Shown here piece after piece: positions 7,356-22,446 of a stretch of 23,054 bases of DNA. Made by a program: the position numbers and the translations under genes. The stretch is from Candidatus Thorarchaeota archaeon. Its GTDB lineage: Archaea; Asgardarchaeota; Thorarchaeia; Thorarchaeales; Thorarchaeaceae. Every line of letters starts with the position of its first letter. The stretch's first letter is position 1. The stretch is taken from the NCBI GenBank assembly GCA_048882045.1, contig JBHLRZ010000043.1:1-23054 (forward strand), given 5' to 3'. The notes beneath the pieces are model-generated. The model did not search any database and was not told the origin of the DNA. It saw nothing but the letters and a program-made list of their open reading frames with translations.

Positions 7356-7405
7356 GTATGGAGATAGTCAGGTCCGAATATCTCGCGTGTCATGACGATC
7401 TTCTG
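7356..7405 (-). repeat. Array repeat R2 (partial)
   Basis: Minus strand encodes QKIVMTREIFGPDYL, then a 1-nt deletion. The distal part is lost. Confidence 0.9.
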
Positions 7406-7421
7406 ATTAGCAGAGAACCTC

Positions 7422-8876
7422 TCACAACTCAGATTTCAGCACAAAATCTACCAGTTCTTGCATATCTCCGAATGGACTCTCATGATATACGTCAGGATGA
7501 ACACAGACCTCTTCATTTGCATGACCAGTGTAATCTATTCCCATTCCTGGTGTGAATCTTACAAGTAACTTCGAGTTTGGAAGGATATAGTAAATTGGAG
7601 AGTCACTAATTCCATCTCCTCCGGATGGAATTCCATATAGCTTAGCGAATCCTGTTTCTTTACAAAACAAGGCAAAGGCATCTGTTGCAGAGAATGTTAT
7701 TGCATCAATCAAGACAATGATTCTCCCTTTGAAGTCAATCTCACGTGCAGGTTCTACAGTCTGTGTATAATCATAGATTGTGAAATCATCAATCAAGACT
7801 TCAGTGGGTAGGTTTTCGAAACTGTCCTTTGTAACAATGTCACCGACATCTGCAACCTTCCGAAACATGTCAACATAGTCTCCCGATCTGAAAGCGAGAT
7901 GCATTTTACTACTCAGTTTCTCTCTTGAGAGAGGTGCAATGACATTACGCATCCATGGTCCGTAACTTCCACCCTGATTTCCCCGGACATCAATTATAAT
8001 CAAGTCGAACTTCTCAACCTTCTTGTAGAACTCTTGTAGGATTATTTTGTCGTCTTTTTCCATGTCATCAGAAAAATCTCCAATCCTAACATAGCCAGCT
8101 TTTTTCTCTGGCCAGACTTTTGTTTCCAATCTTTCTATAGGATATACTGTGTGGAAAGAATATGAAAAGTCAAAACTTGTTTCGAATACGACTTTCTTTT
8201 CCTCTCCAGATCTAGTCTGTATCGTGAAGACATCATCTGGTCCGAAACATCTTGGCGTGATTCTGAATAGGTAGAACTTCTTTCTCTTGAAGTCCCAGTT
8301 GAAAATTGCTTTCTCATAACATTCCATCACGACCTCATCAATCGGTTTATCATTCACAGCTATAACTCGAGAATGACGACCATACTTTTCCTCCCAGTTG
8401 CCATGCCCGGCTTCAATAAGATACTCTCCATTGCTATACCAAGCGCTTGCATCATAGTTTAGAGAGTTTCGTTTCATGAGGAACTTGTCAAAGATTGGTT
8501 TCCAGTATTGGTAATACTTCTTCAGCTCATCACTGAAGATATCACTAAATGGGCTGGTTTCGCAATAATACTTCACATCGTAGAACCCTTCGAGCCGCTC
8601 CGGGTCGATGACTGCTGAATGAGCGTTCTGAAGAGATTGAACCGCATCGAAGATGACTTCAAGATAGTCTTCTGAGGAATGTGAACTCTCAATCCGGTTT
8701 CGATATTCATCAAAAAGATCGAGCCAACTGTAACCTAGCAACCTTTCTTTCATTGAGAGATATGGATTGTTGTCCCTCATGAGAGAGAATAGAGCTTCCA
8801 AGTCATCCAACCAGTCCTGTTTTGTCATGTCCTCTGGATGGATTTCATTAATTTCAATTTTGGAACTTGAAGGCAT
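7422..8876 (-). CDS. S41-family peptidase
   Basis: L.NAHS, PDZ-like VIAVNDKPI, GYVRIGDF, IIIDVRGNQGGS, catalytic TFSATDAF, G.PSGG and HPD motifs. No signal peptide seen. Confidence 0.88.
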   Translation of the reverse strand: MPSSSKIEINEIHPEDMTKQDWLDDLEALFSLMRDNNPYLSMKERLLGYSWLDLFDEYRNRIESSHSSEDYLEVIFDAVQSLQNAHSAVIDPERLEGFYDVKYYCETSPFSDIFSDELKKYYQYWKPIFDKFLMKRNSLNYDASAWYSNGEYLIEAGHGNWEEKYGRHSRVIAVNDKPIDEVVMECYEKAIFNWDFKRKKFYLFRITPRCFGPDDVFTIQTRSGEEKKVVFETSFDFSYSFHTVYPIERLETKVWPEKKAGYVRIGDFSDDMEKDDKIILQEFYKKVEKFDLIIIDVRGNQGGSYGPWMRNVIAPLSREKLSSKMHLAFRSGDYVDMFRKVADVGDIVTKDSFENLPTEVLIDDFTIYDYTQTVEPAREIDFKGRIIVLIDAITFSATDAFALFCKETGFAKLYGIPSGGDGISDSPIYYILPNSKLLVRFTPGMGIDYTGHANEEVCVHPDVYHESPFGDMQELVDFVLKSEL

Positions 8877-8950
8877 GAAATTCCCACCCTTTTCTCAGAA
8901 TATATGGTTAACCACAAGCGCCAAATCTAAAATTAACTCTTCAAAAGGTT

Positions 8951-8987
8951 TTTATATAAGTTGACATTAAATTAACTATTGTTAATT
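8951..8987 (+). promoter_or_regulatory. Putative TATA box and palindromic operator in a divergent intergenic region
   Basis: TTTATATA at 8951-8958, then AATTAAC-TATT-GTTAATT at 8970-8987, about 20 nt before the start at 9008. Confidence 0.5.
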
Positions 8988-9007
8988 CATTATGGGGATG
9001 AATAACT

Positions 9008-21062: not shown

Positions 21063-21134
21063 CTACATCTGTTTCTCTTGCCTGTACGGCAGAAAGTCAG
21101 GTCCGAATATCTCGCGTGCCATGACGATCTTCTG
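21063..21134 (-). repeat. Array repeat R10 (reference copy)
   Basis: 72 nt = QKIVMAREIFGPDFLPYRQEKQM*. Hairpin AAGAAAGGGAT-TCGT-ATCCCCTTCTT at 21030-21055. Confidence 0.97.
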
Positions 21135-21290
21135 TTAGTCGTTCATTGTGAGTCTGAAATAGAAGTTCTTCAAGGATGTGAATAGGATACTTTATGAGAT
21201 AGACCCAGCAGATTACTACAATGTAGGAAGAGGCTTTAGGTTCTGAAGTTCTCGTGCATAATACAAGCATCTGAAGAGGTTGAGTATAGA

Positions 21291-22154
21291 TTGAGAAGAA
21301 CATGGATGAATCTAGAAGCGATAAGAAGCACAGACATCCGGCGACTGCTTGAAAACTTGGGTCTTTCTGGAATGATCCTATATATCGCGATCGAAGCCAG
21401 TTGGGGTGTCGATTATCCAAGTTTTGTGGAATATATGAGTTATAGCCCTAATCTCTATAGATTGACTGACCAGTTGATAATAGCTCTTAGTCCATACATT
21501 AGTATTGGCAACCTGTTCTCTCTAGTGTTTGCTGGTTGCATGTTTCTTGTGTTTCAGTTTACAAAACATCGACGCATTGAATTGATTCTCATTACAATTG
21601 CTGCAGCTTTGACTTTCAAGGTTCGAAGTGCTGCTATGTATCCATTACTGCTACTTCTGGCAGTTACTGGAAATCCTTTGGTACTCATTCCGTTAGCCCT
21701 TGTAAAAGAACATGCGGTTATAATTGGTGTCCTCTATCTTCTTGTGTTTAGACGTGAAGTTCCATTTAGAAAAGTCGTACTTGGTGGAAGCGCTGCTTTT
21801 GCACTTTGGTCTTGTGTTGTTCTATTGATGGGCTGGACATCCGTACCCGGCCTTCCAACTGGTCTTGGCATAACGTCATGGTTGTTACATATACAGGAGT
21901 GGAGCCTCATGACAATAGGATTTAGAACCGTGATTCTTCTCCCATCAATCATACTTCTAATCCGGGACAAAAACAGTGGATTGTTTCTCGGACTATGTAT
22001 TATAGTTCTGATTCTTGTAGCTGATTTCTTTGAACCTCAACATTGGTTAGCACCTGCTGTTCCACTTAGTTGGGAGGCTGTATCGCGGATATCTCCGGAT
22101 GAATCAATACAATCAACCGAACCAGTATTTTCCGATAACACTGTCATGTCATAA
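21291..22154 (+). CDS. Multi-pass membrane protein, unknown function
   Basis: 287-aa hydrophobic ORF. Start uncertain (21291 or 21306). Its last codons overlap the relic at 22118. Confidence 0.7.
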   Translation: MRRTWMNLEAIRSTDIRRLLENLGLSGMILYIAIEASWGVDYPSFVEYMSYSPNLYRLTDQLIIALSPYISIGNLFSLVFAGCMFLVFQFTKHRRIELILITIAAALTFKVRSAAMYPLLLLLAVTGNPLVLIPLALVKEHAVIIGVLYLLVFRREVPFRKVVLGGSAAFALWSCVVLLMGWTSVPGLPTGLGITSWLLHIQEWSLMTIGFRTVILLPSIILLIRDKNSGLFLGLCIIVLILVADFFEPQHWLAPAVPLSWEAVSRISPDESIQSTEPVFSDNTVMS

Positions 22155-22289
22155 GAATGATCTACAAAGCTGTTACGAATAGTTTTTGTTGAAGAGGTTA
22201 TCATAGTAAAGACTTGAATGTGTGGCTGTGGTATGAGTGGAATATATTCAGAAGATATAGGATGAATTCTTGGACAAGAGCATGTTTCA
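22118..22289 (+). pseudogene. Relic of the 69-aa/502-aa gene junction (homolog of 5010-5171)
   Basis: CGAACCAGTATTTTCCGATAACACTGTCATGTC...TGGACAAGAGCATGTTTCA aligns with 5010-5171. Reads VEYIQKI*DEFLDKSMF versus VDYIQIVKDDFLDKSMF, then is truncated. Confidence 0.8.
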
Positions 22290-22374
22290 TTATACTTTGG
22301 ATCCTCGAGATATTTCCAGAATTGTTCGAAAAAAGAAGAATGGAGAGGGATGATTACCCTCTCATATAGATGAA

Positions 22375-22446
22375 TTATTCCATCTGACCCTTCTGACGAT
22401 AGGGTAGATATTCAGGTCCGAATATCTCACGAGCCATGACGATCTT
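22375..22446 (-). repeat. Array repeat R11 (divergent allele)
   Basis: Minus strand KIVMAREIFGPEYLPYRQKGQME*. Seven synonymous and two conservative codon changes versus R10 in the first 18 codons. Hairpin GAGAGGG-ATGATTA-CCCTCTC at 22343-22363. Confidence 0.93.

Follow-up and report, generated by a model that had tools for sequence, protein, structure and literature searches.

The stretch of DNA analyzed here, referred to as the window, is an entire contig of 23,054 bp (C43) from a Candidatus Thorarchaeota assembly of 3.63 Mb, which comprises 93 contigs and is 93% complete. A repeat of approximately 70 bp recurs along the window on one strand only, the minus strand (7362, 12140, 13467, 15017, 15797, 17533, 19876, 21069, and 22384), and the genes between its copies are single, mutually unrelated, and set in either orientation. 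The repeat is the 3′ end of an acyl-CoA dehydrogenase (ACAD) gene, and its copies form an array behind that gene. We consider it likely that the locus is an array of spare ACAD gene ends with stacked cassettes, in which the unit brought in by a cassette replaces the gene end and older copies are displaced.

Accessory cassettes of one to three genes are stacked behind ACAD, and every cassette opens with a unit copy. In the proposed mechanism, a cassette would enter by recombination of its unit with a resident one, which would usually be the unit at the end of ACAD. The incoming unit would then become all or part of the working ACAD 3′ end and terminator, and the previous unit would be displaced behind the cargo, where it would be untranslated and decay slowly. 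Recombination between two units would excise cassettes again. A circular intermediate and an enzyme would presumably take part in the mechanism. Any copy may serve as a gene end, and the copies would come from genomes where they did so. This would account for the differences between the copies, which fall mostly at synonymous sites.

Coding signature and anchor gene

On the minus strand, the repeat reads ..IVMAREIFGPDFLPYRQEKQM*, followed by a short spacer, a hairpin with a purine arm and a pyrimidine arm, and a T-rich run. An earlier note, made by a reader of the sequence alone, had described this as an open frame ending at the repeat boundary in a stop codon. Frame and stop were borne out. 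However, the QK codons listed by that reader as part of the peptide lie outside the repeat in most copies, and conservation begins at the Ile codon at −6. The differences between copies given in the note were reproduced as well. Compared with the copy at 21069 (R10), R8 has two synonymous and no non-synonymous changes within the repeat, R9 has four changes, all of them synonymous and TAG to TAA among them, R7 has seven synonymous codons, and R11 has seven synonymous changes plus D>E and F>Y, ahead of its divergent tail.

When the ratio of non-synonymous to synonymous differences (pN/pS) was calculated by the Nei-Gojobori method for the 10 copies of this genome, the peptide frame gave the lowest value (0.175). 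The antisense frame that shares its third positions followed with 0.27, and the other four frames ranged from 0.9 to 5.5. In each of four copies, 4–6 bases depart from the gene's own end with no residue altered, and the information content over 86 and then 234 copies from many genomes follows a strict 3-base period in the peptide frame. Base-pair covariation had been named as the alternative to codon selection. RNAalifold found no pairing in the coding part of 36 copies, the sole consensus structure being a short terminator-like hairpin after the stop, and covariation is therefore not the explanation of the substitution pattern.

A full-length gene ending in the peptide, which the note had called for, is present in the same genome. 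A six-frame motif search of the whole genome revealed more copies on contig C56, one of which closes an open reading frame (ORF) of 413 aa (L017:9945-11186), and the ortholog is carried by about 40 related Thorarchaeota metagenome-assembled genomes (MAGs); all genomes compared in this work are MAGs or metagenome contigs. The ORF matches the Pfam domains PF02771 Acyl-CoA_dh_N (4.8e-30), PF02770 Acyl-CoA_dh_M (1.7e-12), and PF00441 Acyl-CoA_dh_1 (1.3e-30), and its best solved relative is 5lnx_A (E 1.3e-52, residues 6–401 aligned). With regards to its substrate, every NCBIfam equivalog stayed under the cut-off. The anchor gene is an ACAD with a full-length domain set. Since the protein aligns to solved relatives as far as residue 401, the repeat codes for the last turns of the final helix and a 12-residue tail.

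The ACAD frame reads through the proximal repeat copy to the stop, and the displaced copies are homologous to that end. In real gene ends (n = 32), the first and second codon positions are fully conserved, whereas the displaced copies are degraded at these positions and have a higher pN/pS (0.28 vs. 0.16), as would be expected of relics. The claim that each copy was once a functional gene end is in line with the coding signature and the mostly synonymous differences; that every single copy has served in this way is what we infer.

The last 77 bases of the window (22978-23054) are identical to the reverse of the end of C56 (14601-14525). Based on this overlap and on synteny with locus L047, the ACAD gene would lie on the minus strand just past the right end of the window, followed by at least 14 repeat-bounded intervals and then by window position 1. 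L047 belongs to the closest related MAG (ACAD protein 96% identical) and has the order ACAD, cassette, repeat, o132-like gene, and a block of flavodoxin, SCP2, FMN reductase, and ArsR genes. Two cassettes are thus found next to ACAD in this closest relative, compared with at least 14 here. As more repeats lie beyond the ArsR gene in L047, the array studied here may also run past the contig, beyond window position 1.

Array structure and exchange of gene ends

The repeat is part of a unit of approximately 115 bp, which consists of the last 21 ACAD codons (ATC GTC ATG to the stop), the hairpin, and a T-rich terminator tail. Across 202 displaced copies, conservation sets in abruptly at −6 (ATCGTC ATG), is weak from −9 to −7, and is absent further upstream, and no conserved promoter or ribosome-binding site precedes the unit. 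In the other direction, the conserved stretch goes on beyond the stop and takes in the hairpin and the T-run, as far as about +108. The polarity is strict, as all copies of a locus lie on one strand in 113 of 113 loci, and the median spacing is 1187 nt.

Of the 24 genomes sampled within the genus, 21 contain copies, compared with none of the 16 from outside it. Same-strand copies come after the ACAD ortholog in about 40 MAGs; in a few, nothing but the gene's own end lies within 10 kb. A scan of metagenome contigs yielded 80 loci with 201 copies, with arrays behind the same gene in many of the 80, and on one contig of 106 kb the copies extend across about 70 kb. Viral contigs gave no match to the repeat, and no description of this ACAD-end cassette array was found in full-text searches of the literature.

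The cargo of the arrays is diverse. A total of 223 ORFs form 179 clusters, and 144 representatives match 118 Pfam families, the commonest being NosD/beta-helix, TPR, GNAT, ABC ATPase, GmrSD, and the metallo-beta-lactamase fold. Relative to the repeat, 97 cargo ORFs have the same and 126 the opposite orientation, and because the cargo points either way, the cassette genes presumably carry their own promoters.

Gene ends have been exchanged between lineages. The C-terminal end types of ACAD (..EKQM*; ..KQQMQK, comprising KQQMQK and KQQMDD; and ..KGQFD*) were placed on a tree of the gene body, built from the 900 bases before the repeat in 25 taxa. Five changes are needed on this tree, and shuffled labels need 5.8 on average. 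The KQQMQK/KQQMDD type appears in three separate clades with support values of at least 96 in the Shimodaira-Hasegawa-like approximate likelihood ratio test (SH-aLRT), and KGQFD* appears in two places. As the end types are as scattered on the gene tree as shuffled labels, ends have been swapped between lineages, and the ACAD gene end has moved independently of the gene body. Within the window, the R11 end KGQME* resembles the KGQFD*-type gene ends of other lineages.

Cassettes are shared between species as well. At the nucleotide level, the rhodanese cassette recurs in another species and another context with 83% identity (locus L155), and the same holds for the TPR cassette with 84% (L146), the esterase cassette with 88% (L102), and o340 with 70% (L053). 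In alignments of homologous cassettes, homology starts at −3 to −6 of the upstream repeat, and the neighbors further upstream are unrelated. The tail upstream of homologous cargo is at least 80% identical in four of eight pairs, whereas the identity of the downstream tail stays at or below 71% in 13 pairs, none of which shares it; for tails that are unrelated, the 95th percentile is 76%. From these comparisons, the upstream terminator tail seems to travel with the cargo and the downstream tail does not.

Furthermore, the units erode with distance from the gene. Among the first eight, seven have intact peptides and stable hairpins (z −2.4 to −4.4), and one has an internal stop and two amino-acid changes. 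The next five units are eroded or truncated, with two more remnants at 10713-10725 and 3376-3440. The scattered end types, the one-sided tail linkage, and the erosion with distance support the central claim of the earlier note, namely that an insertion brings a replacement 3′ end and pushes the previous one downstream. The extent of the replacement has to be revised, however, as some exchange points lie inside the repeat and the whole 21-codon end need not be replaced.

Several points weigh against this reading of the array. The most similar cargo pair (96%) has upstream tails that are only about 70% identical, and its downstream repeats share a derived E>K and then switch between +36 and +57, a pattern that is not predicted by a single fixed crossover at −6. 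The asymmetry in tail linkage comes from only 8 and 13 pairs, which are not fully independent. No empty and occupied cassette pair was found within a species, as exact-protein look-ups gave same-species MAGs with the same arrangement or nothing, and no excised circle was seen among the MAGs and metagenome contigs. The probable join of C43 and C56 consists of the 77-base overlap and synteny, without a spanning contig. Finally, no recombinase was found, so that none of the proposed steps can be assigned to a protein, and the model does not account for the first acquisition of a unit by new genes.

Further breakpoints bear on where the exchange takes place. In two closely related ACAD genes whose end types differ, the switch falls at about +44, and the breakpoints of 36 5′-half and 23 3′-half copies are scattered from about +9 to +42 with no single cut site; we read these scattered half-copy breakpoints as decay or illegitimate joins. 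Together with the switch at +36 to +57 in the pair mentioned above, they indicate that exchange takes place within the unit, as it should where the 115-bp homology is a substrate for homologous recombination or gene conversion. In the last 300 bases of the gene, no two genomes are closer than about 91%, which is too distant for a sharp step in crossover mapping from gene-end pairs. Of host homologous recombination on the 115-bp homology and a site-specific recombinase that has so far gone unrecognized, the former is slightly more likely.

Candidate enzymes and comparison with known systems

The recombinase alternative concerns the enzyme step of the explanation alone. It holds that a mobile element or another part of the genome encodes a dedicated site-specific recombinase of an unrecognized family, which would cut at the unit's 5′ edge (around the junction of AAG and ATCGTCATGG) and, like an integron integrase, insert and excise cassettes; we regard this as a serious but lesser possibility. 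The 5′ edge is indeed sharp and constant in the displaced copies, with the weak conservation just ahead of it, but common descent of the units would produce a sharp edge equally well. At −4 and −1, the third codon positions vary less among displaced copies than among real gene ends, although this excess may reflect uneven lineage sampling. The diversity of the cargo suggests a capture mechanism, the strict polarity also speaks for a recombinase, and a second repeated gene end upstream of ACAD has the core TCATGGnnCGTGA in common with the unit. The switch points inside the unit, on the other hand, speak against a fixed cut, and the genome offers no candidate protein. PF00589 (tyrosine recombinase) has no match in this 93%-complete genome, with 14 of 14 controls positive, and searches with PF00239, PF01548, PF01797, and PF01867 detected no serine recombinase, IS110, Y1 transposase, or Cas1. 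Tyrosine recombinases occur in 9 of the 28 genus genomes, but not in those richest in copies. No enzyme, neither integrase nor nuclease, recurs among the 144 cargo representatives or beside ACAD, where the adjoining genes encode membrane proteins and metabolic functions. A helper integrase may lie outside the assembled 93% of the genome.

As a separate observation, a Phage_integrase-family gene of the XerA type was undetected both here and in 19 of the 28 genus genomes. The absence of a XerA-type gene is unusual for archaea.

It is improbable that the ACAD 3′ end is cleaved by a homing endonuclease (LAGLIDADG or similar) or by another nuclease, for example TnpB, and that repair copies in the donor cargo together with a replacement end. 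The precedent for such a route is the mORF elements of fungal mitochondria, known from atp6 of Allomyces and from atp6, atp9, cox2, and nad3 of Glomus (PMC3630166). Their geometry is the same as here, since a foreign in-frame C-terminal coding copy is brought in and the native C-terminus is left unexpressed downstream (PMC3630166). However, mORFs occur singly and carry their own LAGLIDADG or GIY-YIG endonuclease (PMC3630166), whereas the present arrays are long, hold unrelated accessory cargo, and revealed no endonuclease. LAGLIDADG_3 (PF14528) has no match in this genome despite the 14 or more cassettes, the GIY-YIG and HNH families not having been searched genome-wide, and its matches in relatives lie on other contigs and mostly inside frames of at least 1000 aa, like inteins. 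Three TnpB-like genes (PF07282) are present in this genome, but on contigs unrelated to the array, and among the cargo representatives no nuclease recurs. In favor of a nuclease are the loci L057, L059, and L069, in which an ORF of 600–1070 aa with a LAGLIDADG_3 match directly follows ACAD on the opposite strand. Two of the three have no further downstream repeat copy in the sequence fetched, which covers about 10 kb for L059 and about 4.6 kb for L069.

That the repeat is itself the functional element (a 19-aa peptide gene MAREIFGPDFLPYRQEKQM, a structured RNA, or an attC-like folded site) and resembles a gene end incidentally is very improbable and largely refuted, since, even though ATG is its best conserved codon and a terminator-like hairpin follows each copy, conservation starts two codons ahead of this ATG in the ACAD frame, nothing upstream is conserved that could be a promoter or ribosome-binding site, several copies have stops, deletions, or truncations, pN/pS is higher in displaced copies than in real gene ends, there is no covariation, whole-site hairpin, or Rfam match, and a 413-aa enzyme has the identical sequence as its real end.

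For comparison with integrons, sedentary chromosomal integrons, integrase-less CALINs, and the archaeal integrons of Ghaly et al. 2022 (PMC9668308) were considered. Shared features are long one-directional arrays of mostly single-gene accessory cassettes with copies of one recombination site between them, content that varies between close relatives, cassettes common to several species, and distal cassettes that look older. In contrast to integrons, there is no IntI or other tyrosine recombinase in this genome (by PF00589), and the site, instead of being an attC hairpin, is made up of the coding 3′ end of a housekeeping-type gene together with its terminator and is maintained by protein-coding selection. 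Integron cassettes are, moreover, mostly promoterless and co-oriented, unlike the mixed orientations found here. The attC sites of integrons are imperfect palindromes with a GTTRRRY core and fold when single-stranded. Here, folding either DNA strand gave nothing beyond local stems (z −1.4 to −2.2), and no GTTRRRY core was seen by eye at the unit boundaries of the aligned copies, for which no pattern search was made. Thus, the locus behaves like a sedentary integron in its one-directional, variable array of small cassettes, yet it lacks IntI, attC, and co-oriented promoterless cassettes.

A second group of related systems are integrative elements that target gene 3′ ends and accrete in tandem, such as islands targeting tRNA and tmRNA genes, ICESt1/CIME at fda in Streptococcus thermophilus, SCCmec and pseudo-SCC at rlmH, and the 'additive' flexible islands beside tRNA genes. 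As in the present array, direct repeats formed by the 3′ end of the target gene flank each insert, the gene is kept intact and restored by the incoming copy, and the elements stack in tandem. The units described here differ in being tiny (median 1.2 kb), in carrying no integrase, and in occurring up to dozens in a row; their repeat comprises 66 coding bases plus a terminator, compared with a core of 15–60 bp in those elements, and no recombinase is detectable in this genome. The aloposons of Heimdallarchaea were also considered and rejected, as they are tRNA-targeting elements with giant genes.

Whether Thorarchaeota possess a new class of gene-capture platform is a close call, and we lean slightly against it. 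Such a platform would use as its site a protein-coding 3′ end and terminator under purifying selection, would work through an unrecognized recombinase family or host homologous recombination alone, and would sustain arrays of tens of kb with interspecies exchange of cassettes.

Eukaryotes have their closest known relatives in the Asgard archaea, whose uptake of foreign genes is an open question. The locus presents a large, active-looking store of exchangeable accessory genes without a recognizable integrase, including surface beta-helix proteins, TPR proteins, acetyltransferases, restriction-type defense genes, and metabolic enzymes, and its attachment site would stay functional because a host enzyme is under selection. 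Should host recombination suffice to maintain the array, an integron-like platform can start from one duplicated gene end; if a new recombinase acts, it would represent a new family and a new tool. In addition, the last 21 codons of a metabolic gene are exchanged horizontally apart from the gene body, which is relevant to gene trees, and the repeats matter for MAG assembly because contigs break at them.

Layout of the window and further observations

All repeat units of the window lie on the minus strand and are described here from the right end of the contig. The end itself (22592-23054) holds the cassette gene o138 on the plus strand and the overlap with C56. R11 (22323-22443) reads IVMAREIFGPEYLPYRQKGQME* with a hairpin after it, and its end is of a foreign type, similar to the ACAD ends of other Thorarchaeota lineages. 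R10 (21008-21128) has an intact peptide, the stop, the hairpin, and a T-rich run. The peptide is also intact in R9 (19815-19935), with six silent differences from the gene's own end, and in R8 (17472-17592), whose hairpin GAGAGAGGGTCTTCCTCTCTC is also found in the TPR cassette of the metagenome locus L146.

The units further left are eroded. R7 (15790-15834) has an internal deletion of 51 nt relative to the homologous copy in L155, by which the end of the frame and the hairpin are gone. R5 (14956-15076) shows four amino-acid changes, no stop, and a weak hairpin, R4 (13406-13526) has ATG>GTG, F>I, and Q>K, and R3 (12079-12199) combines an internal stop with a weak hairpin. R2 (7360-7399) is a 5′ half alone, broken past about +33. 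Two further remnants were recognized. The first, at 10713-10725, is a 12-nt remnant (TTTGGACCTGAC) between the esterase and BBE genes, and the same junction in L102 continues with the full 3′ half of the repeat. Of the most distal one (3376-3440), the final 19 nt of the frame remain along with the hairpin, and it adjoins the conserved four-gene block of ArsR, FMN reductase, SCP2, and flavodoxin/4Fe-4S ferredoxin genes (1-3311). In L047, only two cassettes separate this block from ACAD, and more repeat copies come after it.

The cargo between the repeats (3441-22322, both strands) comprises o287, o340, NosD/beta-helix, TPR, rhodanese, glutamine synthetase, LVIVD, esterase, BBE-type FAD oxidase, S41 peptidase, o152, o502, o165, and o111. 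No tRNA genes or Rfam families were detected in the window. The NosD/beta-helix cassette gene (17734-19791) contains internal tandem repeats of 66 nt (22 aa), which constitute the commonest repeat family of the window, and NosD-like genes are the most frequent cargo in other arrays, too. Three paralogous small genes, o152, o138, and o132, are found in separate cassettes of one array (window 6901-7304 and 22604-23007; L017 12249-12647), with a nucleotide identity of 83% between o152 and o138, and two of the three are each paired with a paralogous ORF of approximately 500 aa (window 5119-6627; L017 12892-14451). A module of approximately 100 bp with 72–74% identity lies upstream of different cassette genes (window 4676-4793, 6772-6889, and 22483-22580) and may be a shared promoter region.

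The second repeated gene end is located upstream of ACAD on C56 (L017 5256-5339 and 7782-7865). It represents the last approximately 25 codons of the ORF 7409-7858 (..IIMVREVKEES..*) and recurs 2.5 kb away at 87% identity, and each copy is followed by a paralogous membrane protein of 530–550 aa. Its core TCATGGttCGTGA resembles GTCATGGCACGTGA of the ACAD repeat. The two ORFs of 530–550 aa, which are divergent from ACAD, were rejected as enzymes, as both encode multi-pass membrane proteins that match no family. Outside the ACAD locus, a solitary diverged repeat copy with its hairpin is found on contig C44 (20307-20366; about 8308-8367 in L018), where it sits between a beta-lactamase-fold gene and an M20 peptidase gene.

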